64,000 bases of DNA from Pyrinomonadaceae bacterium (GTDB taxonomy: Bacteria > Acidobacteriota > Blastocatellia > Pyrinomonadales > Pyrinomonadaceae): positions 81 through 64,080 of the forward strand of contig DASVQU010000001.1 in assembly GCA_036388995.1 (NCBI GenBank). The letters run 5' to 3'. Position numbers and translations under genes: made by a program. Each line of letters starts with the position of its first letter. The first letter of the stretch is position 1. The notes beneath the pieces are model-generated. The model searched no databases. It worked only from the letters and a program-made list of their open reading frames with translations, and was not told where the DNA came from. This document shows positions 4,220 to 62,827 of this stretch, one piece after another.

Positions 4220-4245
4220 AAAATTGATTTTACTATTTATAAAAT

Positions 4246-4270
4246 GTCTCAAAAAGGGTGTTTTTGAGAC
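4246..4270. repeat. islet palindrome GTCTCAAAAAGGGTGTTTTTGAGAC (perfect 10-bp arms)
   Basis: Perfect inverted repeat 27 nt upstream of the ATG at 4219. Confidence 0.85.
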
Positions 4271-4323
4271 ATTTTAGTATAGAACCACAGGATTATGACA
4301 CTACCTTTTGTCAATAAAATGAG

Positions 4324-7834: not shown

Positions 7835-8143
7835 ATGTATCCACAACAACAGAATTATGGCGGTTCGCCCGATTACTGGAAATCGCAGGGCGCTGATAAA
7901 AAAGTCGCCGCCGGAATTTTGGGAATTCTGCTCGGCTGGCTCGGCATTCATAAGTTTTATTTGGGTTACACGCAGGAAGGCGTGATAATGCTGGTCGTTT
8001 CGCTCATAGTTGGATTTGTAACTTGCGGCATCGGCATTATCGCGATGCAAATTATCGGAATCATCGAAGGAGTAATGTATTTGACAAAACCGGATGAGGA
8101 GTTTGTCCGCACATATATTCAAGGCAAAAAAGGATGGTTTTAA
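7835..8143 (+). CDS. TM2 domain-containing membrane protein
   Basis: KKVAAGILGILLGWLGIHKFYLGYTQEGVIMLV is the TM2 signature. AGGAGA SD upstream. Confidence 0.8.
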   Translation: MYPQQQNYGGSPDYWKSQGADKKVAAGILGILLGWLGIHKFYLGYTQEGVIMLVVSLIVGFVTCGIGIIAMQIIGIIEGVMYLTKPDEEFVRTYIQGKKGWF

Positions 8144-8145
8144 TG

Positions 8146-8170
8146 AAAAAGGCGAAGGGGTCGCCTTTTT
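8146..8170. terminator. bidirectional rho-independent terminator between convergent genes
   Basis: AAAAA-GGCGA-AGGGG-TCGCC-TTTTT. Confidence 0.7.
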
Positions 8171-8172
8171 CA

Positions 8173-9546
8173 TTAATTTTGTTTCGGAAATTTAAGCTCA
8201 GCCGCCTGAATTTCGTGTTTCCATAATTCTTTGCCTGTTAAATCAATCGCGCTCATCGTCAATCGCCGCTCTTTTGCGGGTCCGGTTACTTCGATCATTC
8301 CAAAATTCTTCGTTCCCTTAACCAAAGTTCCGGCGACGCGATCCGGATTGTTTTCTTCGTTTTTATGAGGGTTTGAGTTTCCGGCGGTTAAAGGGCTGGA
8401 CGTAAAATCGTAAAGCGGGTAACTTCCGACATCATTTATACGAATCAGCTCGGTGTAGTGACGATCACCCGAAAGAAAAACGACGCCTTCGACGCGGGCG
8501 TCGCGAATAAAATCGAGCAGTCGACGATATTCGCCGGGAAATTGTTTGAACGATTCAAACGGATTGAACTGATTGAGCATTTGACTGCCGTTGACGACGA
8601 TTTTAAATGTGGCTTTGCTCGAACGCAGACTTTCAGTCAGCCAGCGCATTTGCCGCTCGCCGAGCATCACTTTGTCAGGCGAATTGGGCATTTCGTTTGG
8701 CGAACGGTAAAAGCGGTCGTCGAGCAGGAAAAATTCAACATCCGCCCATTCAAAACGCCCGAAAACGCCGGGCGTCTCCGGCTCGCCGTAAGTCGCGTTC
8801 GCCCAATAATCTTTGAATACGCGGAGCGCTTGTTCGCGTAAGCGATAGGTTCTATCGGAATCGTTCGGTCCGTAATCGTGATCGTCCCAAATCGCATAGT
8901 TGTGAGTTGTGGCTAAAAGCTGCTGCAATTGGGGCAGTTCGCGATTTTGCCGGAAGCGGTAGCGCATTCCGCTTTCGTTGAGCCAATCCGGTTCGCGGTA
9001 ATAAACGTTGTCGCCCAGCCAAATCATAAAATCCGGTTTTTTCGCGGCGATTGTGCTGAAAATTTCAAACCCGGAGCCGTAAGGCGTTCCCGGACGGTCA
9101 AACGGCGGATCGTTAATATAAGCGCACGAGCCTAAAGCAAAGCGAAAAGTGGGCGGCTCGGTGCGCCAGCGCCAATGCGGCTGCGTTTGAAAATTCGGTT
9201 GAAAATCAAACGTCACGCGCCGATTGTTCAGATAAACGTCGTAATCGTAGCGCGCGCCGAATTCCAATTGCGACAGCGTAAAACGCGCGATAAAATCGGC
9301 TTCTTCGTTGGTTCTAACGGTTTTACTAAATTTTACGTTTTTCGGCTCGCCCTGTTTCCAGTAGCGAATTTGCGCTTCCGCCGGTTGTTTTGTTTGCAGC
9401 CAAACGGCGGTTTCGGTCATTTCGCTGTAACCGAGCATCGGACCCGAACGCAAAAGGCTGTTTTGTCGCGCGGTTTGCGCTGCCGAGGGCACCATCAATA
9501 CGGTTAAAATCAGAAAGATAAAACACGTTTTTCTCATCTTTTTCAT
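8173..9546 (-). CDS. phoD: PhoD-like alkaline phosphatase/phosphodiesterase (secreted)
   Basis: Signal peptide present. Metallophosphatase motifs FALGSC, IWLGDNVYY, WDDHDYGPND and LSGDRHY. Confidence 0.75.
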   Translation of the reverse strand: MKKMRKTCFIFLILTVLMVPSAAQTARQNSLLRSGPMLGYSEMTETAVWLQTKQPAEAQIRYWKQGEPKNVKFSKTVRTNEEADFIARFTLSQLEFGARYDYDVYLNNRRVTFDFQPNFQTQPHWRWRTEPPTFRFALGSCAYINDPPFDRPGTPYGSGFEIFSTIAAKKPDFMIWLGDNVYYREPDWLNESGMRYRFRQNRELPQLQQLLATTHNYAIWDDHDYGPNDSDRTYRLREQALRVFKDYWANATYGEPETPGVFGRFEWADVEFFLLDDRFYRSPNEMPNSPDKVMLGERQMRWLTESLRSSKATFKIVVNGSQMLNQFNPFESFKQFPGEYRRLLDFIRDARVEGVVFLSGDRHYTELIRINDVGSYPLYDFTSSPLTAGNSNPHKNEENNPDRVAGTLVKGTKNFGMIEVTGPAKERRLTMSAIDLTGKELWKHEIQAAELKFPKQN

Positions 9547-13814: not shown

Positions 13815-13860
13815 CAAAAAATTTCGTTTCAGCGATACGCTGCATCGCTGAAACGAAATT
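13815..13860 (-). terminator. strong rho-independent terminator downstream of the LTD/FG-GAP gene
   Basis: 16-bp stem ATTTCGTTTCAGCGAT / ATCGCTGAAACGAAAT. On the minus strand it is followed by TTTTTTGG. Confidence 0.8.
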
Positions 13861-15826: not shown

Positions 15827-16873
15827 TTAATTGATCTTCAGAGAAGGATTTGATTGCGCGGCAAGACGCGGGCGCGGCGCATTTTCGCTTGAATAGGCGA
15901 GAATCGTTCCGCCGAAACCGACTGCGAAACCGCGCTCTCGACCGAGAAAAACAATTCGTTCGAGGCGATGTGTCGTGTTGATTTTTTCGGGCGTCCAAGT
16001 GTTTCCGCTGTTTGTCGTGTGAAGCAGCGCGCCGCCGTCGCCCGCCGCCCAGCCTTCATTTGGCGTTACGAAGTGAACATCGAAAAGGTCTGCCGCGAGC
16101 GGAGAATTTTGTCCGCGCCAGGTTTTTCCGCCGTCGGCTGACGCGAAAATCCGACCGCCTGTACCAACCGCCCAGCCGAGCGAGCGTGTGGCGAAAAAGA
16201 CCGAATTAAAACGGGCGTTTTCCGCCGCGTAAACTCTGGCTTCGCGCCAAATGCCGCCGCCGTCGGCGGTGTGCAATATCGTTGCGCCCGCGCCGATTAA
16301 AACCGCTTCGCTTTGGTTAAAGATCGCGCCTCCGCGCAGAAGAAATCTAGTTGGCGAAACTTGTTTTTGCCAAATCTGGTTGTTTTCGAGCGCATAAACG
16401 CTGCCTAGCTCGCCGATTGCCCAAGCAGTCGTGCGGTCATCGGAAACGAGCAGACGGGTAAATTGCGGACTCGCTGTTTTGCTCGTCGGAAAAACGCCCG
16501 TTCGCTCCCAAGTCGCGCCGCCGTCGGTTGTGCGAAGCAAAACCGAGCGCGCTTCGCCCGCAGATTTGAGCTTGAAAATGTCGCGCTCGGCGAGCAGCCA
16601 GCCGTTATTTTCATCGGTGAAAAATACGTCGCGCAGATTATCTTCCGAAGGCTTCGCCGCCTTTTTCCAAGTCGCGCCGCCGTCGGTAGTCATCAGCAAA
16701 GTGCCATTGCTGCCCGCAATCCAGCCGCGTTTGGCGTCGAGAAAATAAATCGAGTGCAGCCAAGCCATCGTTCCCGAAGGCTGTTTGCGCCATTCGCCCG
16801 CATTTGCTTGCTGCAATAAAAAGATCGCGAGACAACAAAGCGCAGTTAGTCTGCAAAGTCTATTTTTAACCAC
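15827..16873 (-). CDS. BNR/Ycf48-like beta-propeller protein (secreted)
   Basis: Motifs TTDGGATWKK, TTDGGATWER, TADGGGIWRE, SADGGKTWRG and TTNSGNTW. The track N-terminus (to 16963) translates the hairpin repeat. GTG at 16873 gives (M)VKNRLCRLTALCCLAIFLLQQANA-GEW, a good signal peptide. The start is uncertain. Confidence 0.65.
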   Translation of the reverse strand: MVKNRLCRLTALCCLAIFLLQQANAGEWRKQPSGTMAWLHSIYFLDAKRGWIAGSNGTLLMTTDGGATWKKAAKPSEDNLRDVFFTDENNGWLLAERDIFKLKSAGEARSVLLRTTDGGATWERTGVFPTSKTASPQFTRLLVSDDRTTAWAIGELGSVYALENNQIWQKQVSPTRFLLRGGAIFNQSEAVLIGAGATILHTADGGGIWREARVYAAENARFNSVFFATRSLGWAVGTGGRIFASADGGKTWRGQNSPLAADLFDVHFVTPNEGWAAGDGGALLHTTNSGNTWTPEKINTTHRLERIVFLGRERGFAVGFGGTILAYSSENAPRPRLAAQSNPSLKIN

Positions 16874-16932
16874 AGAGACACAGAGACACAGAGTTTTTAT
16901 TTTTTTATCTCTGTGTCTCTGTGTCTCTGTGG
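16870..16932. repeat. tandem-repeat-armed hairpin, type A (CACAGAGA)n, copy 1
   Basis: CCACAGAGACACAGAGACACAGAG - 15-nt A/T loop - CTCTGTGTCTCTGTGTCTCTGTGG. Perfect 24-bp stem. Sits between the Wza-like gene and the BNR gene. Confidence 0.9.
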
Positions 16933-16968
16933 TGAAATTATTCGTTGAAAACAGAGTTATCATTTGGC

Positions 16969-19254: not shown

Positions 19255-19365
19255 GAGTCCGGTGAGTCCAGCAAGTCTAGCGAGTCTAGCGAGTCAAAAA
19301 GGAATTTAACTCAGATAAAATTCCTAGACTCGGCGACTTGCTAGACTTGCTGGACTCGCCCGACT
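19255..19365. repeat. tandem-repeat-armed hairpin, type B (GAGTCYRGC)n, copy 1
   Basis: Left arm GAGTCCGGTGAGTCCAGCAAGTCTAGCGAGTCTAGCGAGTC. AT-rich loop. Imperfect inverted right arm 19325..19365, followed by TTTTT. The right arm supplies the last codons and the stop of the 19341.. gene. Confidence 0.85.
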
Positions 19366-21523: not shown

Positions 21524-21548
21524 TTTCAGCCTCTCTCGGACATTTTCA

Positions 21549-21649
21549 CCACAGAGACACGGAGACACAGAGAAAGCAAAAATATAAAAGATTTAGAATT
21601 GTGTTTATTGTCTTTCATTTTTTATCTCTGTGTCTCCGTGTCTCTGTGG
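21549..21649. repeat. tandem-repeat-armed hairpin, type A, copy 2 (53-nt loop)
   Basis: CCACAGAGACACGGAGACACAGAG ... CTCTGTGTCTCCGTGTCTCTGTGG. The A-to-G variant in the left arm is matched by a complementary change in the right arm. Confidence 0.9.
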
Positions 21650-21659
21650 TTAATTTCTC

Positions 21660-26034: not shown

Positions 26035-27648
26035 TTAATTTGGCACGAATTCTGCGAGGTTTGCGGCTGCGCCCGCAGCCAAATTTTTGGCGGTTTCCAA
26101 AGCATCTTGTTCCGATTTGTCAATCGAAACGACGACGCGAATCATTGCGCCGTCCGAACGACGCCGGGAAATGCTGTCTAAAACTGTGAAAAACTTGTCT
26201 TTATATTCATTTGCGACAAATCGCCCGCGTCCTTGATACCAGTAAATCATCAAGGCTTTCGACTGGTGATTTTCAATCACGTAATTGTTGGCGACGAATT
26301 TTTGTCCGTCGGGCAAGCTGATTTCGACAGGCAGACTTTCATTCATCGTCCAACCCGAACCGGGCAAGCAGTTGCGCGGGCTATGATAAGTCGCGCCCGT
26401 ACGCTGAGTTTCATAATAACCGATGTAAAGATTCGCGCCTTTGCCTGAAGCCGGAACAAAATAATCGCGCATCAAATAATCGTCCGAGCCGAGAACCGTT
26501 TCGATTTCCGTTTCAAAACGTTGATCTGCGCCGTTTTGCCGCCAGTCGCCGATTTTCGCCGGAAAATCTTTCAAAAGTTTTCTGTCGGGACGAATTTCAC
26601 CTGTCGCTTCCCGCCACTGAATCAGCGAGCCGCCCGCAAGCAAAACCAGCAGCAAAAGCGAGAATTGGAAAGAAGAGGAGAAGAGGAGAAGAGGAGAAGA
26701 GGAACGGAAATCCGGCTTGCTTATCTCTCCCGTTCGCTCGTTCTCCTTTTTTCCCTTTCTCCAGTTTAAATCCAGGATTTTTCCGACGAGCAACAGCAGC
26801 AGCAAAGCCGCGACATAAACCAGCCAGCCGGAAGCGCCGTGCAAAAAGCCCTGCGCGGTTTCGCCGCCGTAGTAATAAGCCAGAATTCCGGTCGCTGCGA
26901 CGCGGACGCCGTTGGTCAAAACCGCAATCGGCAACGCGGCAAGCATTAAAATTGCCGCGCGCCACAAATCAAAACCTTTGAAAGAGGCGAAATTCCTCCG
27001 TCTGCTCGTAAAATAAGCATAAACGAGCGCGAGCGTGACGAGCGTCATCAAAGAGCGAATCCCGCTGCACGCCTCGACGACTTCGAGCCAGATTGATTGC
27101 GATGCGCCGCGCGGCAGCAGTTCGATCACGTTGCCGAATTTCGCCGCCGGAATTCCAAAAAGCCGAATTCCCCAAACCGCCAAATCCGTCGCAAGGAGCT
27201 GAAGCGGAAACGCGATTTTGTTAAATAGAATCGTCGGAATCGGAATCGCCAGCGCGAGCAAAACAAACGGCACGACGAGCTTTTTCAAAATTTCCCAACC
27301 GAAAAAATAAATCGTAATTCCGGCGAGCATCAGCAGGAGCGAAAATCTCTGAGTAAAAAGCTCCGCGCCCAAAATTCCGACGAGCAGAAAAAACATCGCC
27401 GCCAAACAAATCGCGCCGCCCGCGAGAAACGCCGGACGTTTTTCCATTTTTTCCAATTCGTCTTTTTCAAACCAGACGAGAAAACCGATCAAAAACGGAA
27501 TCAAAAGCCCGTGCGAATAGTTTTCGTCCATCCACCAGGTTTGCAGCAACAGCTTTAATGCGGGCGCGTACAAAAACAGCAACGCGGCGGCAAGCAGCAA
27601 AGGCTGCCAAAATCTGGCGAAACTGTTTTTAACCCACGTATTTTGCAT
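26035..27648 (-). CDS. exosortase fused to an EpsI-family domain
   Basis: The N-terminus LLQTWWMDENYSHGLLIPF and a polytopic region (...CSGIRSL...) match the exosortase pattern. The C-terminal about 200 aa match EpsI (GATYHSPRNCLPGSGW, MIYWYQGRGRF). Confidence 0.85.
   Translation of the reverse strand: MQNTWVKNSFARFWQPLLLAAALLFLYAPALKLLLQTWWMDENYSHGLLIPFLIGFLVWFEKDELEKMEKRPAFLAGGAICLAAMFFLLVGILGAELFTQRFSLLLMLAGITIYFFGWEILKKLVVPFVLLALAIPIPTILFNKIAFPLQLLATDLAVWGIRLFGIPAAKFGNVIELLPRGASQSIWLEVVEACSGIRSLMTLVTLALVYAYFTSRRRNFASFKGFDLWRAAILMLAALPIAVLTNGVRVAATGILAYYYGGETAQGFLHGASGWLVYVAALLLLLLVGKILDLNWRKGKKENERTGEISKPDFRSSSPLLLFSSSFQFSLLLLVLLAGGSLIQWREATGEIRPDRKLLKDFPAKIGDWRQNGADQRFETEIETVLGSDDYLMRDYFVPASGKGANLYIGYYETQRTGATYHSPRNCLPGSGWTMNESLPVEISLPDGQKFVANNYVIENHQSKALMIYWYQGRGRFVANEYKDKFFTVLDSISRRRSDGAMIRVVVSIDKSEQDALETAKNLAAGAAANLAEFVPN
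26671..26762. repeat. intragenic, degenerate tandem-repeat-armed hairpin in the exosortase-EpsI linker
   Basis: (AGAAGAGG)x4 at 26671..26702 faces a decayed pyrimidine-rich partner, CCGTTCGCTCGTTCTCCTTTTTTCCCTTTCTCC, at 26729..26762. Encodes KGKKENERTGEISKPDFRSSSPLLLFSSSF. Confidence 0.6.
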
Positions 27649-33201: not shown

Positions 33202-36159
33202 TTATTTTGTTGTGGCTTGTTCCAGTTTAATCAGAAAATTGTTTGCCTGCGCTTCGGCGAAAAGTTTTTTCAAGAGTTCGCCTTGTTTAAAATCAAAACG
33301 ATTTGTTTCGATGAATTTGGCAAGTTCTTCGGGTTTGGCTTCCGACGTAATTGCGCCTTGCATTTCGTTGGCAGTCAGACGCAGAACCGGAACGAATTTG
33401 ACCGATTTGCTGCCGCGACGGACATCAATCAGATTGCGGTACAAAATCATTTTTATCAGCCCGTCTTTGATGTCGCTCGTGTGCGTCAATTTTCCGCGCT
33501 GGGTGTGTTTTGATTCGATTAAATACAAGATTCCGTTTTCGTAAACCGCTTCGTCAACCGTCAGAAAATATTTGCCGCCGAGATAATCCGCGATTGTGAT
33601 GCGGCTTTTGGTTTGTGTCGGCATCGTTTCTTTGGGCTGGTCGGTTAGGAGTTCGCGCCGTTGTGCCTGCTGGGATTTTTGGCGGGAAAATTCTAAAAAC
33701 TGCACGATGTCGCCCGTTAATTTGCGCTCGAAATTTTCAACTCCCGCCGCGTCGTGCATTTTAACGCCGGTTGTTTCGGAGATTTTTTGATAAGCGGTTT
33801 TCGCCAGTTCGAGCGTTTGTTTTAAATTTTTCAGCTCGCGCAGATTCCACTCGAAAGCCGAAAGATTTGTCCGGCTCAGTTCTTTTAATTTCGTCTGGAT
33901 AAATTCGTTGTTAAATTGCTGCCCGATTAAACTGTCGGCGCGTCGAGGGCTTTTTTCCGCCCGGTCGTAATAACCCAAAACCGCGTAAACTTCCAGAAGA
34001 TTTAAAAGCGAAAAAGTGTCCCAGGCTAAAAAATCGCGCTCGCCCGATTGTCCTTCGTCTTTTAAGACCGGAATCACGGCGGCGCGTTTTTGATGTGCGA
34101 GAGTGTTGTAGAGGCGTTCGTAAGGATAAGAGCGTGTGCGTTTTGGGGAAACCCAGCGGCTGACGGCTACTTTTTTATCGCCGTCGGTTAAAACAAACGC
34201 TGGCGGAGCGCGATTTACATCGAGAGTGTCAAGCGGAAACTCGCGCAAATCTTCGGTTGCCGAAGGCTTATATTTTATTTGTTTGATTTCGCCCGTAATA
34301 TTTGAATCCTGCAAGCGGGCGGGCGCAAAAGAAGTTTTTTGAAAAACGGCGGGCGCGGTTTCTTGCGTTTCGATTTCTATTTTGCGACTTTGAAGGCGCG
34401 GCGGGACGGAAACGCTCGTTCCGAGCCGAACAAAAGCGTTTTCGCGTTTGACGGTTACGCGCGGCGCGGCTTTGGATTTTGACTGATAGGTCAAAGTGTA
34501 AGCCGTGCGAAGCTGCGCGACGACATCTTCGTAAACTTTTTGCAATTCTTCGATTTGGCGAATCGGGAAATAAACCCCGCCAGAAACTTCGGCGAGTCTT
34601 TTGGCTTCTTCTTCGGCTTTTGTCGTCAGAGTTAAATAACGATTTCTGAGCGGATCAATAGTCTGAGTTGATTCTTGAACGTTTGCCGCCGGAATCAAGC
34701 CCGAAGGCACGTAAAGCGGATAAATGAGCGCACCGGATTCTTCGATTGCGCCGAGCAGCGATTCAAACGGAATAAACGAGCGCGTATCGTCGCCGTCGGA
34801 AAGAATCACAATCGCCGTTCGCTCGCCGCGCAGGGGTTTTAAAGTTTCGACTAAGGTAAAAGCGAGCGAGTCGTAAAGCGCCGTGCCGCCGCCCGCGTCG
34901 AAAGTGTCGAGCGACTCGGAAAGCGCGCGCTTATTGCCGGAAAAATTCGATAAAACCTGCACGTCGTCGCGGAAAGTGATGATTGCGAGACTGTCTTGCG
35001 GGCTGACGGTGTTGATAAAATTGCGCGCGGCTTTGCGGATAAAATCAATGCGCTCTTCGACGCTCCCCGAAACGTCGAGCAGCAGGACAAGATTAAAAGG
35101 CGTTGCGGTTGATTGAAAATCGAGAATTTCTCGTTCAGCGCCGGCTTCAAAAATAGCGAAATCCTGTTTTGATAAACCGTTGACGGCGCGCCCGTTTTTG
35201 TCTGTGACGCTGACGTTTAATCGTCGCGCTGAATCCGAAGCGTTGGCGGGAGCACCCGGCGAATTAGGGCGTTTGACGATTGTCGGCTCGCTGCGAAACG
35301 GCGGCAGGGTTTTCGCATAATCGCCGAATCTTCGCGGGCTGACTTTGCGAATCGCATCGGTCAAAACCCGGTCGCCGCTTTGAATGATTGTTTTCGCGGC
35401 TCTCGTCAATTCTCGGTCGCGCAAATCCGAAGGCACTTCCGAAGGCGGGACGTTTAACAAAATCACTCCGCGCGCAGTTGTAAAATTCAACGAGATTAAG
35501 CGGTCTTCGGTCTTCGGTTTTCTGTCTTCGCTTTTTTTCTTTTTTTCTTTTTTGTCCGGTGTCGGTTGTGCCTCGTCGGTTGGTTCTTCTGTTTCATCGG
35601 ATTCTTCCGACTTTGGACTTTTTTTATCGGGTTCGTTTAATTCGCCTTTGACAGAGAATTTGCCGCCTGCTTTTTCTTTGACTTCGGCAAGTGTCAAATC
35701 GCTCAACAAAAGCGGGCGTCTTTCCGTCCAGAGAAAGTTGTATTTGATTGCTTCGGTCGGCACTTCAGCGTAAATTGTACCGGTTTCGGTTGTGACATCT
35801 GCCGATTCGAGATTTCCTCCCACTTCAACCGCGCCGTCTTTGCCAACGATTTTCAGCCGCGTCCGTTCCGGCACGCGCACAGTCAAATCAATGCGTCGCG
35901 CCGTTTCGCCGACTGTTATTGAAAGCACGCCTCGTTCGCTTTTTACAGTGACATCGGTTTCCGAAACCGGAGAATTCGGCGAATCGGCGGTCAAAAGAAT
36001 TTTGTCGCCCGTTTCTTCGGCGACGACGCGAATTGTTCCGCGCGTGTTCGTAATCGCAAGCTGCGGTCGAGCGCCGGTCGGAATCTCGTGCGAAATGCCC
36101 TGCGCGGCGGCGAAAGAGCAAAATAAAACGGTGAGAAATAATACTACTGCAAATCTCAT
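33202..36159 (-). CDS. 985-aa fusion: signal peptide + DUF4097-like beta region + K/E-rich spacer + acidobacterial-type VWA domain + C-terminal paralog of the 32105..33199 nuclease-like protein
   Basis: Signal peptide MRFAVVLFLTVLFCSFAAAQG. VWA/MIDAS motifs LLLDVSGS...GGGTALYDS...ILSDGDD, preceded by LNVSVTDKNGRAVNGLSKQDFAIFE (TIGR03436-like). Residues about 625-985 (nt about 33202..34287) align by eye with the whole 364-aa neighbour. Confidence 0.7.
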   Translation of the reverse strand: MRFAVVLFLTVLFCSFAAAQGISHEIPTGARPQLAITNTRGTIRVVAEETGDKILLTADSPNSPVSETDVTVKSERGVLSITVGETARRIDLTVRVPERTRLKIVGKDGAVEVGGNLESADVTTETGTIYAEVPTEAIKYNFLWTERRPLLLSDLTLAEVKEKAGGKFSVKGELNEPDKKSPKSEESDETEEPTDEAQPTPDKKEKKKKSEDRKPKTEDRLISLNFTTARGVILLNVPPSEVPSDLRDRELTRAAKTIIQSGDRVLTDAIRKVSPRRFGDYAKTLPPFRSEPTIVKRPNSPGAPANASDSARRLNVSVTDKNGRAVNGLSKQDFAIFEAGAEREILDFQSTATPFNLVLLLDVSGSVEERIDFIRKAARNFINTVSPQDSLAIITFRDDVQVLSNFSGNKRALSESLDTFDAGGGTALYDSLAFTLVETLKPLRGERTAIVILSDGDDTRSFIPFESLLGAIEESGALIYPLYVPSGLIPAANVQESTQTIDPLRNRYLTLTTKAEEEAKRLAEVSGGVYFPIRQIEELQKVYEDVVAQLRTAYTLTYQSKSKAAPRVTVKRENAFVRLGTSVSVPPRLQSRKIEIETQETAPAVFQKTSFAPARLQDSNITGEIKQIKYKPSATEDLREFPLDTLDVNRAPPAFVLTDGDKKVAVSRWVSPKRTRSYPYERLYNTLAHQKRAAVIPVLKDEGQSGERDFLAWDTFSLLNLLEVYAVLGYYDRAEKSPRRADSLIGQQFNNEFIQTKLKELSRTNLSAFEWNLRELKNLKQTLELAKTAYQKISETTGVKMHDAAGVENFERKLTGDIVQFLEFSRQKSQQAQRRELLTDQPKETMPTQTKSRITIADYLGGKYFLTVDEAVYENGILYLIESKHTQRGKLTHTSDIKDGLIKMILYRNLIDVRRGSKSVKFVPVLRLTANEMQGAITSEAKPEELAKFIETNRFDFKQGELLKKLFAEAQANNFLIKLEQATTK

Positions 36160-36166
36160 TATTTTC

Positions 36167-36265
36167 GAGTCCGGCGAGTCCGGCGAGTCTGGCGAGTCTG
36201 GCGAGTCAATTTGAATTTGTTTCTTTTGACTCGCTAGACTCTCGACTCGCCAGACTCGCCGGACT
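36167..36265. repeat. tandem-repeat-armed hairpin, type B (GAGTCYGGC)n, copy 2
   Basis: GAGTCCGGCGAGTCCGGCGAGTCTGGCGAGTCTGGCGAGTC - loop - GACTCGCTAGACTCTCGACTCGCCAGACTCGCCGGACT - TTTTT. The right arm encodes the last residues (SGESGESRV) and the stop of the kinase gene. Confidence 0.9.
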
Positions 36266-38546
36266 TTTTCGTATTGCGGCTCGTATGGCGACCCGATTGC
36301 GCGAGCTTTTCGCGCAAACGAAGCTGCCAGCGTTTTTGCGTGCGGTCGTTTTCTTCAAATTCGGTGAGCAATTCGCCCAAGCCTTCGCCGCCCGCTTGTC
36401 TGGATTTTAAGTATAAAAGACCCGTGATGACCGATGTGAGCGAGCTGAGGAGAACCAGAATCGGAAACCACAAGATTTGAAAAATCGCTTCATAAACCGT
36501 TTCCTGGAAAGATTTTTTTAGCTTTTTGTCCTCTTCGGTTTCCGGCTGCGCGGCGGCTTGAGCGGTTTGGTTTTGCTCTTCAAAGTCGGTTCCTATTGAA
36601 ACTTTGCTCTCCTCGCGCAGACGAATATTAACGCCGCCGGGGGTTTTTTCAACAACGAAAATATCATTTGATTTCATCAGCGACGAAACGAAAAGCGCTA
36701 AAGCACCCGATAACAAGAGAGGCGCGAAAAACGACAGCGAAAATGCGGCAACCGTGGTGCTGAGCGAGCGCCGAACAAGCTGAGAAGAACGCCGCAATGC
36801 CTGGCGACCGCGCAGGTTTTCCATCGCTACAACCGGCGAGACGAGATAAAAAAGCACGAAAACCCCGACTCCCAGCGAAAAACCGAGAAGCATAACGGCA
36901 ATCGAAAAAAACGACAAAATGCCTGTCGCAGCAGCGCCCCAATTAACCGAGACGCTAATGCCGAGCAAAATCGCGCCCGGAATTATCCCGACCATTAGCG
37001 CTAAAAATGCAATTAATGTAGTGATGGTTACAGTTCCGGCAAAACCGCGCCATCTGGTTTTCGCCGCCGCCAGAGCCTTTTTCCAATTGACGGGACGCAG
37101 CGGAACGGCTAAAAGCTGGGCGACGATCCACGTCGTCACGCCGAGCAGAATTGACGCGAAAAAGATGCCGACAAAAATTGAGGCAAATCCCAAAATGGCT
37201 GAGAAAATGCCCGCCACCGTCGAGGAAATGACGTTTTCGAAACGCAAAAAACTGATGGTAATCCGCGAAAAAGTAATCAGAAAGCTCGGCAATTGAAGCA
37301 GCAGGGAAAGCCACAAAAACGTCGGTAAATGCTCGCTGTAAATCACGAGCGCGCGGCGCAGCAGCATACCGATGCCTTCGCTCGACGCGCGCAGCTTGCT
37401 CGAAAAATCAATTGCCGATGCCGGACGCTCGTCCGCCCGTTTAGCCAGCGCCGAATGAATCGTCTGTTTTACCCGGCGACGCAGTTTTTTTGTTTCGAGC
37501 GGCGGCGGTTCAGTTTCCTGATGCGCTTTGATAACTTCGGTAAAATTGCCGGTAAAAGGCGTCGAGCCGGAAAGCATTTGATATGCGATAACGCCTAAAG
37601 AGTAAACGTCGGCGCGCGGATCGAGCCGCTCGCCCCGACATTGTTCCGGCGACATGTAAAGCGGCGTTCCCAAAACCGCGCCGACTCGCGTTAAAGCCGA
37701 CGAGGAACTGCCGACAGTTCTATTTTCAGCGCCGTTTGGAACGGATAAAATCTGTGTCGCAACCGCTTCCTGATTTGTCGCCGCGCCGCCGTTATTTTCG
37801 GCAACGGTCGCCCGCGACGACTGAAAAATTGCCGTTGCGCCTTCATCCGGATTTTGGATTTTGGATTTTGGATTTTGAATTTCAAAATTTAAGGTTGCGC
37901 CTTCGTCAATTTCGGTTGTTAAATTTGCAGAAAGAGCGACGGTTGCGCTTTCCAAATCAACCGAGTGAGAAGAAAGACTTTGCGCTTTAAACTTTTTACT
38001 TTGTACTTCTTCTTCGTCTTCGCTCATCGGCTCTTCGAGCTTGGCGATGCCGAAATCGAGAACTTTGACGGTGTAGCCGCCGCGCGAGTTCGGTTCGAGC
38101 CAGATGTTGTCGGGTTTTAAATCGCGGTGAATAATGCCTTGCCGGTGCGCTTCGGCGACCGCCGAGCAGGTTTGCTCCAAAATATCGAGCGTCCACGACA
38201 GCGGCAGGCTTTTTTCTTCTTCCAGAACTTCGCCCAGAGTGCAGCCGTCAAGATATTCCATCACAAGATAAGCCACGCGCCCCAGTTCTGTCTCGGCTAA
38301 ACCGAAATCGGTCACGTCAACGACGTTCGGATGACGCAGACGACCGGCGGCGCGGGCTTCGCGGCGAAAACGCTCGACAAATTCTTCGCGGCGCATAAAT
38401 TCGGGCGCGATAACTTTCAGAGCGACGGCGCGCTCCGTCCCTTCGTGCAGGGCGAGATACACCGCGCCCATACCGCCGCGCCCTATTTCGCGTTCGATTC
38501 TGTATTTGCCGTCGAGCGTTTGTCCGATTAAATTTGCCGCGTTCAT
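36234..38546 (-). CDS. Ser/Thr protein kinase with C-terminal polytopic membrane domain
   Basis: Kinase motifs GRGGMGAVY, ALKVI, HRDLKPDNIW, DFGIAK and GTPLYMSPEQ. The C-terminal half has about 6 TM helices. Confidence 0.85.
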   Translation of the reverse strand: MNAANLIGQTLDGKYRIEREIGRGGMGAVYLALHEGTERAVALKVIAPEFMRREEFVERFRREARAAGRLRHPNVVDVTDFGLAETELGRVAYLVMEYLDGCTLGEVLEEEKSLPLSWTLDILEQTCSAVAEAHRQGIIHRDLKPDNIWLEPNSRGGYTVKVLDFGIAKLEEPMSEDEEEVQSKKFKAQSLSSHSVDLESATVALSANLTTEIDEGATLNFEIQNPKSKIQNPDEGATAIFQSSRATVAENNGGAATNQEAVATQILSVPNGAENRTVGSSSSALTRVGAVLGTPLYMSPEQCRGERLDPRADVYSLGVIAYQMLSGSTPFTGNFTEVIKAHQETEPPPLETKKLRRRVKQTIHSALAKRADERPASAIDFSSKLRASSEGIGMLLRRALVIYSEHLPTFLWLSLLLQLPSFLITFSRITISFLRFENVISSTVAGIFSAILGFASIFVGIFFASILLGVTTWIVAQLLAVPLRPVNWKKALAAAKTRWRGFAGTVTITTLIAFLALMVGIIPGAILLGISVSVNWGAAATGILSFFSIAVMLLGFSLGVGVFVLFYLVSPVVAMENLRGRQALRRSSQLVRRSLSTTVAAFSLSFFAPLLLSGALALFVSSLMKSNDIFVVEKTPGGVNIRLREESKVSIGTDFEEQNQTAQAAAQPETEEDKKLKKSFQETVYEAIFQILWFPILVLLSSLTSVITGLLYLKSRQAGGEGLGELLTEFEENDRTQKRWQLRLREKLAQSGRHTSRNTKKSGESGESRV
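37834..37907. repeat. in-frame 60-nt insertion in the kinase linker: period-7 array (ATTTTGG)n flanked by a 14-nt direct repeat
   Basis: GTTGCGCCTTCATC (37834..37847) and GTTGCGCCTTCGTC (37894..37907) flank ATTTTGGATTTTGGATTTTGGATTTTGAATTTCAAAATTT. The protein reads DEGAT-LNFEIQNPKSKIQNP-DEGAT. Confidence 0.8.
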
Positions 38547-38735
38547 TTGTTCAAATCGGTCGTTAATCTTTGGCTGGTCTTAAGGAACTTTAACCGAAAA
38601 TCGCATTTCGAGCCAAACCGCCAGCCGAAATTAACATCGTAAACCGAACGCCGAAACGCGAAAACGGTTTCGGTAAAATTTACAACGAGAGCTAAATTTG
38701 CTACTTTCAAAACTTTGGTACGGAGACGAATCCGA

Positions 38736-39971: not shown

Positions 39972-39978
39972 ATTTTTA

Positions 39979-40043
39979 CCACAGAGACACAGAGACACAG
40001 AGAGAAAAAACAATAAAAACTCTGTGTCTCTGTGTCTCTGTGG
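39979..40043. repeat. tandem-repeat-armed hairpin, type A, copy 3
   Basis: CCACAGAGACACAGAGACACAGAG - AGAAAAAACAATAAAAA - CTCTGTGTCTCTGTGTCTCTGTGG. Confidence 0.9.
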
Positions 40044-40061
40044 TTAATTTTTAAGGATAAT

Positions 40062-41270: not shown

Positions 41271-42082
41271 AAGAAATAACGTTCGATACAAACCCGCCTA
41301 TCGTGCAAACAAACACAATCAGCGAGGCATTTGCGAGCGTCGGACGCGATCCGGCGCAGCTTTTTCGTCAATGGAATTATAAAGGCGCAGTTCTGAGCGG
41401 AACGATGCGCGCTCCCATCTTTTTCATCACCTATTTAATCGGCAGAGAAAGCATCAAAATCGCGCTCGCCGCCGCCTTTGCGCAATTCGTTTTCCGCTTT
41501 TTCTTTGCGGGTTTGAGCAGCGCTTTGATTCAAAAATTCCGCCGCGTCGAACCGGCTTGGAAAGCTCTGCTCGCCGTAATGCTTTTGATTCCGGCAATCA
41601 GCCACATTTTTGAGTTTGCAGTGCAATACGGTTTTGCTCATTTTACTCAAACCGGCGACCACACCGACGAAGCAATTTTACGTTCAATCAGTATTTCTAT
41701 TATTTCGGCGCTGTTCGGTTTGTTTGCAATGCGGCGCGATGTGATGATAGTCGGCGAAGAAGAAAGCAAATCAATTTGGAGCGATTTGAGCAGGCTGCCG
41801 AGATTAATTTTTATTTTCGTCGGTTTTATCCCGATGGAAATCGCCAAAATGCTTCGGCGCGGGGCTTATTTGGCAGCCGCTTGCAGCGTTCTCGGTTTCG
41901 GCGTTTTCGCGCAGATTCTCGGCTGGGCTGTAATCAGCAAGCCTTTATGGACTTACAACAAAGGCAAATGGACGATTTTCTCGTTTTGGGGAATTGACGG
42001 AATGATTTTGCTTCTGCTGTGCCTAATTCCCGCCGCGCTTTATCTGAGAAGCACGACAAAATCATCCGAAGACGTTTCATAA
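41267..42082 (+). CDS. polytopic membrane protein (hypothetical)
   Basis: ATG at 41267 overlaps the upstream stop (ATGA). About 6 hydrophobic helices. No family recognised. Confidence 0.55.
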   Translation: MKEITFDTNPPIVQTNTISEAFASVGRDPAQLFRQWNYKGAVLSGTMRAPIFFITYLIGRESIKIALAAAFAQFVFRFFFAGLSSALIQKFRRVEPAWKALLAVMLLIPAISHIFEFAVQYGFAHFTQTGDHTDEAILRSISISIISALFGLFAMRRDVMIVGEEESKSIWSDLSRLPRLIFIFVGFIPMEIAKMLRRGAYLAAACSVLGFGVFAQILGWAVISKPLWTYNKGKWTIFSFWGIDGMILLLLCLIPAALYLRSTTKSSEDVS

Positions 42083-42085
42083 AAA

Positions 42086-43465: not shown

Positions 43466-43477
43466 AATTTAGAAGCA

Positions 43478-44575
43478 ATGAATGAGCTGGTGCTGGCAAA
43501 CTTGCGGACTCGTCCGTTTAGAACATTTATCGCCGTCGTCGGCGTCGCGCTTGGCGTCGTGCTGGTAATTTTGTTCACCGGATTGGCGCGCGGAATGTCG
43601 AACGATATGGCGAAGCGCGCATCGAATTGGAAAGCGGAAATTGTTTTCACTCGCCCCGGATCATTTGAAACCTCAAGCTCAAACGCTTCCGTCAACACGA
43701 AATATGTCGAACGGCTGGTAGAAATTGAAGGAGTGGAATCTGCCGTTCCGATTATTCGTTATTTCGTCGCCGGAACAGGCAGCTTTGGTCTCAGACAAAT
43801 TGACGGCGTTGATTGGGACGGTTATGCGCGAATGAACGAAATGCGAATCGTGCGCGGGAGCGCCGCCGTCGCCAATGACGAAGTAATTTTGGACGAGCGC
43901 GAAGCCGGCGATTTGAACGTTGATGTCGGCGGTACAATCAACTTATTCGGCAACAAGCCTTACAAAGTCGTCGGCGTTTTCGCGCCGCCGTCGGGCGCGC
44001 GAACGAAAATGTCGCTCACGGCTTTGCAGGACATTTTGCAGGCGCCGGGAAAATGCTCTTATATTTTGGTCAAAATCAAAGAAGGCATTTCAGCAGAAAC
44101 CGTCGCCGCCAGAATCAACGAAGAATTGCCGGGAAATAAAATAAATTTGACGCAGGATTTGATTGTTGACGCCGAACAGCGCTTTCCGGCACTTAAAAAC
44201 TTTTTGCGAACGCTTGTCGGTTTGGGCGCATTCGTCTCGTTTATTTTCGTGCTGCTTTCGATGTACACGACCGTTACGGAGCGGCGACGCGAAATCGGGA
44301 TTCTAAAATCTCTCGGCGCATCGCAGATGTTTATCGTCGGGACTATCGAATTCGAGGCTTTGCTGATCGGCATTTTAGGGGCGATCACCGGATTTGCGGT
44401 CGCCTTTGCCGCCGCGTTTTTGATTCAAAACGTTTTTAATCTGGCATTTGAATACAACACCGGCTGGATGCTGACGGCAATCGCTCTGGCAATCGTCGGC
44501 AGCCTCGTCGGCGCGCTCTATCCGGCGTGGCGCGCGTCGAGTCTCGACGTAGTACAAGTTCTAACAAATGAGTAA
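43478..44575 (+). CDS. ABC-transporter permease, FtsX/MacB-LolCE type (no adjacent ATPase)
   Basis: An N-terminal TM, a large periplasmic MacB-like domain, then 3 C-terminal TMs with RRREIGILKSLGAS. Confidence 0.75.
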   Translation: MNELVLANLRTRPFRTFIAVVGVALGVVLVILFTGLARGMSNDMAKRASNWKAEIVFTRPGSFETSSSNASVNTKYVERLVEIEGVESAVPIIRYFVAGTGSFGLRQIDGVDWDGYARMNEMRIVRGSAAVANDEVILDEREAGDLNVDVGGTINLFGNKPYKVVGVFAPPSGARTKMSLTALQDILQAPGKCSYILVKIKEGISAETVAARINEELPGNKINLTQDLIVDAEQRFPALKNFLRTLVGLGAFVSFIFVLLSMYTTVTERRREIGILKSLGASQMFIVGTIEFEALLIGILGAITGFAVAFAAAFLIQNVFNLAFEYNTGWMLTAIALAIVGSLVGALYPAWRASSLDVVQVLTNE

Positions 44576-44647
44576 TTAGTAATTAGTAATTAGTAATTAG
44601 TTTAAATGCTGATTACTTATTACTTATTACTTATTACTTATTACTAC
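44570..44647. repeat. tandem-repeat-armed hairpin, type D (TAATTAG)n / (CTTATTA)n
   Basis: GAGTAATTAGTAATTAGTAATTAGTAATTAG - loop - ATTACTTATTACTTATTACTTATTACTTATTACTAC. One mismatch per heptamer. The permease stop TAA lies inside the first unit. Confidence 0.85.
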
Positions 44648-44652
44648 CAAGA

Positions 44653-45846: not shown

Positions 45847-45847
45847 A

Positions 45848-45915
45848 CCACAGAGGACACAAAGGACACGGAGTAAAAAACAATAAAAACTCTGTGTCCT
45901 CTGTGTCCTCTGTGG
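45848..45915. repeat. tandem-repeat-armed hairpin, type A variant with 9-nt period (CACAGAGGA)n, copy 4
   Basis: CCACAGAGGACACAAAGGACACGGAG - TAAAAAACAATAAAAA - CTCTGTGTCCTCTGTGTCCTCTGTGG. The loop is nearly identical to that of copy 3. Confidence 0.9.
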
Positions 45916-45953
45916 TGAATTTTGCTTTAGCTGTGGCAGACGCAAAAGTTGCA

Positions 45954-46580: not shown

Positions 46581-46616
46581 GCTAAAGAACATCATTCAGG
46601 AACTTATTTTACGTTC

Positions 46617-46997: not shown

Positions 46998-46998
46998 T

Positions 46999-51500: not shown

Positions 51501-51517
51501 AATCAATCGCAGAAAAA

Positions 51518-51559: not shown

Positions 51560-51582
51560 TTTAAAGGTAAAGGACACTTTTT

Positions 51583-53160: not shown

Positions 53161-53174
53161 CGTTAAACGATTGC

Positions 53175-53209
53175 AAATCTAAAATCTAAAATCTAAAATC
53201 CAAAATCGA
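53175..53209 (+). repeat. period-7 tandem array AAATCTA x3, AAATCCA, AAATCGA
   Basis: Five heptamers in the queA/rimI-like spacer. Same unit (as reverse complement) as the array inside the kinase gene. Confidence 0.8.
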
Positions 53210-58946: not shown

Positions 58947-59909
58947 ATGAAACCGAGAGCTTATATATTTTTTATCTTAATTCTTGGCTGTGCTTCATTT
59001 AGCACAGCCTGTAGCTTTTTCAGCGCGAAAAGCAACGGTCAAACCGCGAAAGATACCGTTGTCCAGCCCATTTCCGGCGAATACGGAAAAGCGCAGCGAA
59101 TAGCGACGATTCAAGACGCTTTCGTCACGGAAAGCAGCGGTTTAGCTGTGTCGCGCCGTAACAAAGACACTTTCTGGACGCATAACGATTCGGGCGACGA
59201 CGGTTTTCTTTACGCTTTTGACAGGAGCGGAAAACGTCGCGGAATCTTTCGAGTCGCGGGCGCGAAAAACTACGATTGGGAAGACATCGCCGCTTACACC
59301 GACCGGAAAACCGGCGAAAATTATCTTTTCATCGGCGACATCGGCGACAACGGGCGCAAGCGTTCCGAAATCGTCATTTATCGCGTACGCGAGCCGGAAA
59401 TAAAACCGGATGACGCAAAATCAACAAAGAAAAATGCGCGTAAAATCGAGGGCGCCCAAGCGATTCGCGTCAAATATCCGGACGCGAGCCGCGACGCCGA
59501 AACGCTGCTCGTCAATCCGGCAAACGGCGATTTATACATCGTCAGCAAATCTTTAATTGGCAGCGCGGACGTTTATAAGCTCGCCGCCGGATTTCAAATT
59601 AATAAATCAAATACTCTCCAACATCTCGGCAGCGTCAATGTGCCGAGCATCACGCCCGGATTTTTAACCGGCGGCTCGGTTTCGCCCGATGGCAAACGAA
59701 TTGTTTTAAGCGATTATTTCGCCGCTTACGAATTTGTCCTGCCCGCGAAAGCAAAAAACTTTGACGAAATCTGGAAACAAACAGGCGCTGCGATTGATTT
59801 AGGCGAGCGCGAACAAGGTGAAGCGATTTGCTACGGTTTGGACGGAAAAACCCTTTATGCGACGAGCGAGAAAAAATCTTCTCCGCTGATTGAAGTCCAA
59901 AGAAAGTGA
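58947..59909 (+). CDS. lipoprotein, beta-propeller-like (hypothetical)
   Basis: ATG at 58947. Lipobox FILILGC. ESSGLAV...FWTHNDSGDD...LFIGDIGDN pattern. Confidence 0.55.
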   Translation: MKPRAYIFFILILGCASFSTACSFFSAKSNGQTAKDTVVQPISGEYGKAQRIATIQDAFVTESSGLAVSRRNKDTFWTHNDSGDDGFLYAFDRSGKRRGIFRVAGAKNYDWEDIAAYTDRKTGENYLFIGDIGDNGRKRSEIVIYRVREPEIKPDDAKSTKKNARKIEGAQAIRVKYPDASRDAETLLVNPANGDLYIVSKSLIGSADVYKLAAGFQINKSNTLQHLGSVNVPSITPGFLTGGSVSPDGKRIVLSDYFAAYEFVLPAKAKNFDEIWKQTGAAIDLGEREQGEAICYGLDGKTLYATSEKKSSPLIEVQRK

Positions 59910-59972
59910 GCAGTAAGCGGTGAGCAGTGAGCAGATGTTTTTACTGCTCACTGCTCACCGCTTACTGCTCAC
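59906..59972. repeat. tandem-repeat-armed hairpin, type C (GTGAGCA/GTAAGCG)n; also a plausible bidirectional terminator
   Basis: Perfect 29-bp stem GTGAGCAGTAAGCGGTGAGCAGTGAGCAG / CTGCTCACTGCTCACCGCTTACTGCTCAC, with T-rich runs on both strands. The TGA stop of the upstream gene lies inside the first unit. Confidence 0.9.
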
Positions 59973-59978
59973 TTTTGC

Positions 59979-62755: not shown

Positions 62756-62761
62756 TTCGGT

Positions 62762-62827
62762 TTTCGGATTAGAAATTTTAAAACCCCCATCTTCGCCTTA
62801 TAATCCGAAATCTGAAATCTGCAAATT
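62762..62827. repeat. intergenic hairpin TTTCGGATTA...TAATCCGAAA followed by GAAATCT x2 heptamers
   Basis: 10-bp inverted repeat at 62762..62771 / 62801..62810. Then GAAATCTGAAATCTGCAAATT directly upstream of the activator gene ATG. Confidence 0.6.

Follow-up and report, generated by a model that had tools for sequence, protein, structure and literature searches.

How can a single hairpin architecture recur at gene junctions with unit sequences that are unrelated to one another, and what might such hairpins do there? The question is raised by a 64,000-nucleotide (nt) stretch of DNA from a Pyrinomonadaceae bacterium (assembly GCA_036388995.1, contig DASVQU010000001.1, positions 81 to 64,080 of the forward strand), referred to below as the window. 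It holds eight hairpins whose arms are short tandem arrays, the second arm being made of reverse-complement units. They belong to four types that differ in their unit, namely type A (copies A1 to A4), type B (B1 and B2), type C and type D. The original prediction, made from the sequence alone, proposed that either a generating mechanism or selection for the architecture itself lies behind them. We show here, by comparison with relatives, that some gene junctions persistently hold a hairpin with periodic arms while the sequence of that hairpin is replaced. The data also largely establish that the hairpins are foldback repeats, that is, pairs of short tandem arrays in inverted orientation, built from units of 7-9 nt and of the same type as the short tandemly repeated repetitive (STRR) sequences or long simple sequence repeats (SSRs). 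The best explanation, which we put forward with moderate confidence, is that these evolving foldback repeats act as intercistronic stem-loops of the mRNA.

Hairpins persist at orthologous junctions while their sequences are replaced

Orthologous loci, named below by locus number, were obtained through protein homologues and look-ups of exact proteins; a metagenome search with the glycosyltransferase protein yielded two distant relatives only. The loci form two ladders of increasing distance from the window. For BtaA, the protein identities are 94% for L350 and for L125/L126, 85% for L127, 80% for L128, 79% for L129 and 77% for L130, and for the glycosyltransferase they are 96% for L352, 92% for L353, 86% for L354 and 81% for L355. 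At the junction between the FtsX-like and BtaA genes the window carries the type D hairpin (44570..44647, + strand; period 7, AGTAATT four times in one arm and ATTACTT five times in the other; -32.5 kcal/mol). A period-7 hairpin stands at this junction in all seven lineages, each time with a different unit: AGTAATT in the window, AGTAATN in L350, AGTGAGC in L125, AGTGGTC in L127, AACAGTT in L128, AATGGTR in L129 and AGTGAAG in L130. In each of the seven the upstream stop codon lies in or just ahead of the first unit, and the ATG follows 2-10 nt past the last one. The units continue the gene end in register in the window (GAG TAA TT..., from GAGTAATT...) and in L130 (GAG TGA AG..., from GAGTGAAG...), which points to a local origin. 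GTGAGCA, the unit of the type C hairpin, also builds the hairpin of L125 at this junction.

The junction between the BtaA and methyltransferase genes, where the window has A4 (45847..45916, + strand; period 9, CACAGAGGA; -50.1 kcal/mol), is likewise occupied by a hairpin in all seven lineages. It is of type A in the window, L125, L127 and L129, and made of three different heptamers in L128, L130 and L350. Thus L350, although just 6% diverged in protein, has a heptamer hairpin at this place, and the C-terminus of its BtaA is altered too; in L127 the stop codon has been lost and BtaA is translated through the entire 5′ arm. These two junctions, one with seven different period-7 units in seven relatives and the other with a type A or heptamer hairpin in every one of them, strongly support the proposal of a generating mechanism or of selection for the architecture.

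The glycosyltransferase ladder shows further stages of replacement. A2 (21545..21653, - strand; -58.3 kcal/mol) consists in the window of the units CACAGAGA/CACGGAGA/CACAGAGA around a long structured loop. At its site the closest relative, L352, has a (GTTTATCGA)3 hairpin ending exactly at the ATG, L353 a heptamer hairpin, L354 a short aperiodic hairpin and L355 a 14-nt spacer with the Shine-Dalgarno (SD) sequence AGGAG. The site of A1 (16865..16937, - strand; three units of CACAGAGA per arm with the terminus TT(C/A)ACCACAGAG and a 15-nt loop that is A-rich in the sense orientation; -48.1 kcal/mol, z-score -13.9) bears type A variants with CAC or CGC cores in four lineages (window, L352, L354 and L355) and none in L353. 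B1 (19256..19365, - strand; period 9, GAGTCYRGC; -67.6 kcal/mol) is a degenerate copy with 90% complementary arms; type B is found at its site in L352 as well and as a relic in L354, and is missing from L353 and L355. A3 (39978..40044, + strand; a perfect 25-bp stem with the loop GAAAAAACAATAAAAA; -48.0 kcal/mol) is shared, in identical form, by L350 only and is absent from the same junction in L128, L129 and L130. At the junctions from ATPase to kinase and from glycosyltransferase to export gene a hairpin was never present, the genes being separated by spacers of 16-36 nt (with GAGGTAA in the latter case).

Detection of the hairpins and independent assemblies

The two remaining elements are B2 (36168..36265, - strand; period 9, GAGTCYGGC; -73.8 kcal/mol), whose arms have unequal unit numbers and fold in a shifted register, and the type C hairpin (59903..59975, without strand; period 7, GTGAGCA; -64.8 kcal/mol) with its perfect 32-bp stem. 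Both arms of all eight elements were reported by Tandem Repeats Finder, which together with our own periodicity scan gave periods of 7 (C and D), 8 (A1-A3) and 9 (A4, B1 and B2) and 3-5 units per arm. The arms are 88-100% complementary, and the loops measure 9-51 nt. An inverted-repeat search of the window returned seven of the eight elements as its seven longest distinct pairs, and missed D because the longest perfect run in D is 6 nt. Our own hairpin scan (arms of at least 18 nt, complementarity of at least 85%, loop of at most 90 nt) found nine hairpins in the whole window. Eight are the elements described here, with an arm periodicity of 0.68-1.0 at period 7, 8 or 9, and the ninth, at 51514-51562, is an ordinary terminator composed of an A-run, a stem and a T-run. 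In 30 dinucleotide-preserving shuffles of the window, periodic hairpins occurred on average 0.37 times per shuffle even at a laxer arm length of at least 14 nt. The minimum free energies of the eight hairpins as RNA, from -32.5 to -73.8 kcal/mol, correspond to z-scores of -8.5 to -13.9 relative to shuffles. The elements therefore lie where they were predicted. Their units are present as had been described, except that the 3′ arm of D is not an exact complement of the 5′ arm and that the two arms of a hairpin can differ in unit number (four and five in D, and likewise unequal in B2).

Some copies in other records stand at contig ends, and assembly or chimeric-read artefacts have to be considered; the original prediction itself had named such an origin as a reason to abandon it. 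Contigs from two other metagenomes (JGI 3300034007 and ENA ERZ27253102), however, are 99.98% and 99.89% identical to the window and match it without gaps over 20.6 and 15.0 kb. The matching stretches take in A1, B1, A2 and B2, and all 22 mismatches fall outside the hairpins. This gapless near-identity in two further assemblies implies that the hairpins are real and not length-polymorphic among these near-identical strains. With three independent assemblies identical over four hairpins, and orthologous copies in many more, including multi-megabase contigs and isolate genomes, the artefact explanation is refuted and retains a negligible probability.

Concerted evolution of the two arms

Sequence changes in the hairpins are often mirrored between the arms. 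At the B2 site every unit of L350 reads GAGTCYGGA instead of the GAGTCYGGC of the window, with the complementary change in every unit of the 3′ arm. The A1-site hairpin of L352 consists of three mutually different units, each mirrored exactly (29 of 29 bp); the variant middle unit CACGGAGA of A2 recurs in its 3′ arm, and the irregular unit GTAAGCG of type C, with two substitutions, is mirrored exactly in the partner arm. In 162 type A hairpins from all loci, which were preselected for at least 80% pairing, 398 departures from the CACAGAG core were counted, and for 307 of them the opposite arm has the complementary change.

The D site offers an instructive pair. In L350 the units are AGTAATN, where N is T, A, C and A, and this irregular series is mirrored in the other arm. 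In the window each arm is internally uniform, but the two differ at one position per unit (AGTAATT against the reverse complement AGTAATA), which leaves a T·T mismatch at every seventh pair. One arm has become fixed for T and the other for the complement of A, a homogenisation that did not involve the partner arm, and comparison with L350 attributes the mismatches to each arm having been homogenised alone. At the A1 site, moreover, the loop is inverted in L352 and L355 relative to L354 and the window (TTTTATTTCGGTCTTTT against AAAGACGAAAATAAAAT), implying that it was flipped by recombination between the arms.

We conclude that units are gained, lost and homogenised within an arm through slippage or unequal exchange, that copying from arm to arm (by inverted-repeat conversion or hairpin-templated correction) keeps the arms complementary and sometimes flips the loop, and that a hairpin is occasionally replaced wholesale by, or gives way to the spread of, a few multi-copy families, type A among them. 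The expectation that periodic arms could expand or contract by slippage is borne out by the differences in unit number between arms and between orthologues and by the homogenisation within arms. Selection for pairing may contribute to the mirrored changes but is not needed to explain them. Concerted evolution can seldom be followed as cleanly, in an object of such small size, as in this orthologous series.

Position relative to genes and a possible role in the mRNA

The window is an XrtA/PEP-CTERM exosortase polysaccharide (EPS) locus of Pyrinomonadaceae, with genes for a chain-length determinant, an ATPase, a tyrosine autokinase, a priming glycosyltransferase and an export protein. Further genes of the window code for a BtaA/DUF3419-methyltransferase pair, a Ser/Thr kinase and an acidobacterial VWA protein. 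The closest homologues of its proteins belong to named Pyrinomonadaceae. The hairpins take up eight of roughly 50 gene junctions, and all eight are intergenic or overlap gene ends only; as the original prediction had it, seven sit between co-directional genes and C between convergent stop codons. The upstream stop codon lies within the 5′ arm in B1, B2, C and D, abuts it in A4 (the TGA of BtaA) and precedes it by 3, 6 and 31 nt in A3, A2 and A1, respectively. In B1, the stop codon of the tyrosine-kinase gene (the TAG in a GTCTAG unit) is inside the 5′ arm and the ATG of the glycosyltransferase gene follows 3 nt past the 3′ arm; B2 encloses the kinase stop codon in the same way, with the ATG of the VWA gene 6 nt past the 3′ arm, and in D the upstream stop TAA is part of the first unit and the ATG of BtaA stands 6 nt past the last. 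None of these three has an SD sequence between the 3′ arm and the start codon. Past the type A copies the next start codon comes after 15-50 nt, with SD-like sequences for A2 and A3 (for A2, the SD sequence GAGAGAGG and an ATG 22 nt past the hairpin). For 49 of the 64 co-directional cases the upstream stop codon starts no more than 40 nt before and no more than 5 nt past the 5′ foot (-40 to +5).

From this arrangement we infer that the hairpins would be transcribed in polycistronic mRNAs and fold into stems of 25-33 bp at cistron junctions. By what is established for these enzymes, stems of 25-33 perfect pairs would block 3′ exonucleases and serve as RNase III substrates. The hairpins of the window may likewise stop 3′-to-5′ exonucleases and/or offer RNase III-type cleavage sites, which would give neighbouring cistrons different mRNA lifetimes. 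Where a hairpin reaches from the upstream stop codon to 3-10 nt before a start codon without SD sequence, as in D, B1, B2 and many orthologues, it could mask the initiation region, and the downstream gene would then be translated mainly once a ribosome finishing the upstream one had opened the foot of the stem (translational coupling). Such a role in the RNA is favoured because the hairpins persist at particular junctions despite the turnover of their sequence, because stop and start codons are positioned tightly at both feet of the stem, and because a hairpin stands in L352 where a relative, L355, has a plain SD spacer.

Stem-loops at gene ends also bring to mind intrinsic transcription terminators, or attenuators that set the level of transcription along operons, and termination is one of the options mentioned for STRR hairpins (PMC2670836). 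Of the eight, the type C hairpin alone resembles a (bidirectional) terminator: it lies right between two convergent stop codons, its flanks are A-rich and T-rich (AAAG/CTTT(T)), and no other hairpin has T-rich tails on both strands. Behind A3 and A4 comes TTTTT/TTTT at a distance of 4-5 nt, and the purine-rich arm is the 5′ arm in 107 of 140 hairpins. Six of the eight, however, have no T-run on the transcribed strand, the T-runs of B1 and B2 being on the non-transcribed one. A consensus terminator scan of positions 36000-55900, which gave 43 sites against 42.2 expected, flagged none of B2, A3, D and A4. The ordinary short-loop terminators of the window (4240-4276, 8140-8176, 13820-13860 and 51514-51562) are of a different design: the stems of the periodic hairpins are 2-4 times longer, mostly lack a U-tract and lie inside operons. 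Hairpins are found between divergent genes as well, and within conserved operons the downstream gene starts follow the stems at a distance of just 3-20 nt. A general function in termination or attenuation is therefore unlikely.

Several observations nevertheless speak against the hairpins being intercistronic RNA devices. Mismatches in the stems, read in the sense orientation, comprise 48 G·U (G·T) and 38 A·C, and counts of wobble mismatches without a preference for the sense strand do not single out the RNA of the coding strand. Co-directional, convergent and divergent regions hold 63, 22.5 and 15% of the hairpins compared with 58, 25 and 17% in a crude baseline, although a device acting at 3′ ends or between cistrons should avoid divergent regions. 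Two junctions of L353 have no hairpin, and one of L355 has just an SD spacer; in these lineages the hairpins are dispensable there. A1 lies in frame within an open reading frame (ORF) in three lineages, L127 translates the whole 5′ arm at the A4 site, and loops are flipped. A structural role alone would also leave unexplained why type A keeps a CACAGAG core and a TT[CA]ACC terminus across phyla, and why mismatched spacers stand beside cores that are kept; the clusters, nested copies and solo arms of type A described below, like its cross-phylum core, look like those of a spreading element.

The type A family and the possibility of a mobile element

Type A can be written as (CACAGAG+1-2 nt)n with the terminus TT[CA]ACCACAGAG, and a degenerate form of this pattern was found at no fewer than 120 loci in species-representative genomes and at least 120 in a viral collection. 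Among the matches listed, 120 genome loci (850 kb) contain 166 hairpins with arms of at least 18 nt; 77 of these are periodic, and 36 of the 77 have units unrelated to type A, mostly heptamers; the hosts of these are Acidobacteriota, Chloroflexia, Betaproteobacteria and Planctomycetota. In all loci together, 34 of 60 non-type-A hairpins have period 7. Type A itself is carried by isolates, among them B. finegoldii, Nostoc, Anabaena, Pseudoalteromonas, Chitiniphilus and Roseateles. In an isolate of Bacteroides ovatus it stands between gmd and the GDP-fucose synthase gene (gmd-fcl), and Gemmatirosa kalamazoonensis has it at 12-13 places per megaplasmid, one of them nested in another hairpin. Archaeal hosts were considered for four loci labelled as archaeal metagenome-assembled genomes (MAGs) and not accepted, as flanking genes such as a bacterial-type speA and an MFS pump gave no confirmation.

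This wide occurrence raises the alternative that the hairpins are selfish or neutral foldback elements, i.e. non-autonomous mobile DNA resembling miniature inverted-repeat transposable elements (MITEs) or REPINs, which would have inverted ends made of tandem subrepeats, like a prokaryotic counterpart of the Foldback elements of Drosophila, would be merely tolerated at junctions and would spread, within and between genomes, by a putative enzyme or by conversion between hairpins. Type A has a conserved terminus: among the matches listed, [AG]C stands ahead of 244 of 261 arms, usually as TTCAC, TTAAC, CTCAC, TTAGC or TGAAC. In the same set, 82 pairs of arms have their termini at the foot of the stem ('foot-out') and 15 have them at the loop ('foot-in', in Pyrinomonadaceae and other Acidobacteriota MAGs), and 67 arms are solo; the distance between arms varies from 2 to about 176 nt. 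Type A occurs in many phyla and in viral contigs, but in none of 5,426 complete E. coli genomes. Exact arrays of type A and type C were found in 16 and 45 stretches of the viral collection, against 1 and 0 for composition-matched shuffled units, and 20 of 89 type C arrays on viral-collection contigs sit in hairpins; the type C unit also forms hairpins in cyanobacteria-like contigs. Type B did not emerge as a cross-taxon hairpin family, since none of its 41 viral-collection stretches is in a hairpin, and these period-9 stretches may be coding repeats.

Tandem clusters and nested copies fit a mobile element too. In a Chitinophaga-labelled MAG (L049, 690-1151), at least four whole type A hairpins are strung together at intervals of about 111 nt; the series sets in immediately behind a stop codon and continues to where the contig ends. 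Nesting occurs in Gemmatirosa. The mobile reading is also in keeping with the way in which relatives of 94-96% protein identity have one type in place of another at a given junction, with the overwritten C-termini of upstream proteins, with the lack of stop codons in all six frames of type A, which is found in frame in ORFs, and with the lack of preference among intergenic classes. Target-site duplications, on the other hand, are not evident: in 125 candidate pairs, for which the script paired arms imperfectly, the flanks of type A match as direct repeats at 0.23-0.26, no better than shuffled partners (0.21-0.28); by eye, isolated cases do look like duplications (AATTTTTA around A3 and AATGAGT around D). 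No transposase was seen next to the hairpins, in an analysis that made no search aimed at one. The many unrelated units would each need to be recognised, the in-register D-site units suggest that these arose on the spot, and certain junctions always have a hairpin while others never do. We regard a selfish or neutral nature as possible, though on balance improbable; it and a function in the RNA are not mutually exclusive.

A related proposal can be made tentatively, namely that type A is one horizontally spreading non-coding family of at least ten bacterial phyla and viral contigs, moved or recognised by putative machinery, and that together with the heptamer hairpins reaching from stop to start codon it might form a general cistron-joining device able to replace the SD spacer. 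As type A is present in cultivable and genetically tractable Bacteroides, at gmd-fcl, a role as stabiliser, processing site or coupler is directly testable.

The L049 cluster bears on yet another explanation, in which the repeated units would be binding sites for a protein (an S1- or cold-shock-type OB-fold RNA-binding protein, or a DNA-binding one) and the second arm would be an antagonist or incidental. The spacers between the CACAGAG cores differ there between the arms (AT/GT against GA), so that the 1-2-nt spacers are variable and mismatched while the cores are kept. Solo arms exist, and the window itself has a single-arm direct heptamer array, AAATCTA repeated 4.7 times (53175..53207, + strand), which has no complementary arm and extends from 15 nt past a stop codon to 4 nt short of the ATG at 53212. 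Protein binding has been proposed for TAACTGA arrays, with CspB binding heptamer repeats (PMC4679880), and for Nostoc heptamers (bioRxiv 10.1101/2022.06.06.494920). Yet the sites would be buried in the stem once the hairpin is folded, and a single sequence-specific protein is unlikely because units at one and the same junction differ completely between relatives; protein binding thus appears slightly less probable even than termination.

Within the family, A3 and A4 have nearly identical loops, to which the loop at the orthologous site of L127 is related. The near-identity claimed for the two loops holds, and the common descent derived from it is plausible. Other arrangements of type A were also noted. 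On plasmid 1 of Gemmatirosa kalamazoonensis (L356, 1460-1630) a type A element (CACAGAGGA three times) lies inside the loop of an outer CGCAGAG-type hairpin, and in L161 a CACGAAG-type arm lies within a type A loop. In Nostoc and Cronbergia (L018, 4290-4420; L080, 1092-1160) a longer, conserved repeat (…GGAATGAGAGTTTGAGAGATTTTTTGCGT…) encloses one type A arm, and in L018 this longer repeat is flanked by the inverted repeat AGGACTTACGCAA / TTGCGTAAGTCCT; this suggests that the longer repeat of Nostocales is a composite small dispersed repeat. Three of the type A sites looked at are in polysaccharide loci, i.e. the EPS locus of the window, gmd-fcl of B. ovatus (L251, 2985-3086) and the BF2782 capsule locus of B. 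fragilis, so that a link of type A with such loci is possible. In the last case it is a PCR primer site upstream of the locus that carries the type A sequence (PMC3090145), and this primer was the only match when the literature was searched by sequence string. Neither keyword nor sequence searches of the searchable literature found a published description of the type A family or of the acidobacterial hairpins.

Relation to known repeat classes

The closest relatives of the hairpins in design are the STRR hairpins of heterocystous cyanobacteria, known from hupS-hupL, in which tandem 7-bp units and their complement stand between co-transcribed genes. These come with many unit sequences per genome and have been proposed to act in transcript stability or translational coupling (PMC2670836). 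The window hairpins share with them both the arms of tandem short units with a reverse-complement second array and the intergenic position. They differ in that STRR hairpins have been described, as isolated cases, in cyanobacteria only and the window host is an acidobacterium, in that half of the window copies have the 8-9-nt units of a cross-phylum family, and in that turnover at orthologous sites and concerted evolution of the arms are documented here. The TAACTGA heptamer arrays (long SSRs) of Beggiatoaceae, Cyanobacteria and Bacteroidetes overlap stop codons and end a few nt before start codons without SD sequence (1 nt in Beggiatoaceae). Each of the three frames contains stops, and the arrays are met with again in phyla far apart (169 direct sets versus 1 inverted; PMC4679880). 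The window has intergenic heptamer arrays that hug stop and start codons in the same manner, and the direct array at 53175-53207 has just that arrangement; TAACTGA arrays are direct repeats, however, whereas the arrays of the hairpins are inverted pairs that fold. Both the architecture (in STRR hairpins) and the tight relation to stop and start codons (in TAACTGA arrays) are thus known already. What appears to be new is the existence of the class outside cyanobacteria, the turnover and concerted evolution at orthologous junctions, and the CACAGAG family of many phyla. Tandem-repeat hairpins have so far been a cyanobacterial curiosity, and our data suggest that they form a general class of bacterial intergenic elements.

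Repetitive extragenic palindromic (REP) sequences, bacterial interspersed mosaic elements (BIMEs) and REPINs resemble the hairpins as multi-copy, intergenic, hairpin-forming repeats with head-to-head and tail-to-tail dimers and clusters, and REP/BIME have been linked to the stabilisation of mRNA and to termination (PMC3733652). By definition, a REP monomer forms an imperfect palindrome of 20-40 nt that bears a GTAG or CGTC tag. A single arm from the window (e.g. CCACAGAGACACAGAGACACAGAG) is not self-complementary and only the pair of arms folds, and no GTAG/CGTC tag is present, type A ending in ...CTCTGTGG T(G/T)A and types B, C and D otherwise. The hairpins therefore fall outside the definition of REP because each arm is a non-palindromic tandem array, and the description of them as REP/BIME-like in location but of another design holds. 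A scan of 20 window proteins showed EPS, lipid and kinase proteins. Bacterial MITEs and in-frame palindromic elements such as Correia, ERIC and the Rickettsia RPE are similar in having inverted ends, in lying inside operons and at gene ends, and in that some copies are translated as protein (A1; L127). The arms amount to terminal inverted repeats, and the type A terminus TT[CA]ACCACAGAG is conserved, but the ends in the window are made of tandem subrepeats, with many unrelated units sharing one design. Inverted arms of short tandem subrepeats in variable number, which snap back into a hairpin, are also the hallmark of the Foldback (FB) transposons of Drosophila; these have the same kind of arms but are eukaryotic, of kilobase scale and linked to a transposase.

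Rfam gave no match at gathering score in the whole window, and in permissive mode only sub-threshold matches to animal and plant miRNA precursors, that is, to generic long hairpins. Standard tools (Rfam, REP finders and terminator finders) do not report such hairpins. A CRISPR array was rejected, since the window copies are single hairpins dispersed over 43 kb and the 'spacers' of the L049 cluster are partly duplicated. A likeness to the DnaA box (TTATCCACA against TTAACCACA) was dropped as coincidence, as were those to the sarcin-ricin loop (AGAGGAC), Tn7 ends (TGTGG) and integron attC sites.

Gene calling and other repeats in the window

A1 lies downstream of the polysaccharide-export gene and in frame within the ORF 15827-16963 (- strand), which encodes a BNR/Ycf48-like secreted protein and stays open through the hairpin from an ATG at 16963. 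Behind the hairpin comes the signal peptide (…LTALCCLAIFLLQQANA), and the 3′ arm has an in-frame GTG in its last unit; the A1-site hairpin lies in frame between the start codon of the BNR protein and its signal peptide in the window, L354 and L355. The JGI call on the identical sequence of L001 uses a downstream TTG start (window 16816) that would drop the signal peptide. Public gene calls elsewhere put start codons inside or upstream of hairpins, as for the methyltransferase of L128 (11227) and the BNR proteins of L354 and L355 (12290). Hairpin repeats probably cause systematic start-site errors in gene calling; such hairpins mislead gene callers, and they break assemblies as well.

A weak, imperfect hairpin with roughly heptameric arms (TTTCGGA / TCCGAAA; 84% complementary) is found at 62756..62816 (+ strand) between a stop codon and the next ATG. 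Tandem arrays also occur within ORFs of the window: the exosortase gene has (AGAAGAGG)x4 at 26671-26703, and in the VWA gene, at 35501-35553, a (CGGTCTT)n array is succeeded by (CTTTTTTT)n. The Ser/Thr kinase ORF contains, at 37849-37882, a heptamer array of AAAATCC (four to five units, coding on the - strand) that is translated as EIQNPKSKIQNP in a variable linker. It is flanked by a 14-nt direct repeat, GAYGAAGGCGCAAC (DEGAT), and is common to L350 and different in L128 and L130. Units of the AAAATCC family turn up again at 53175 as well as in one L014 hairpin and one L082 loop.

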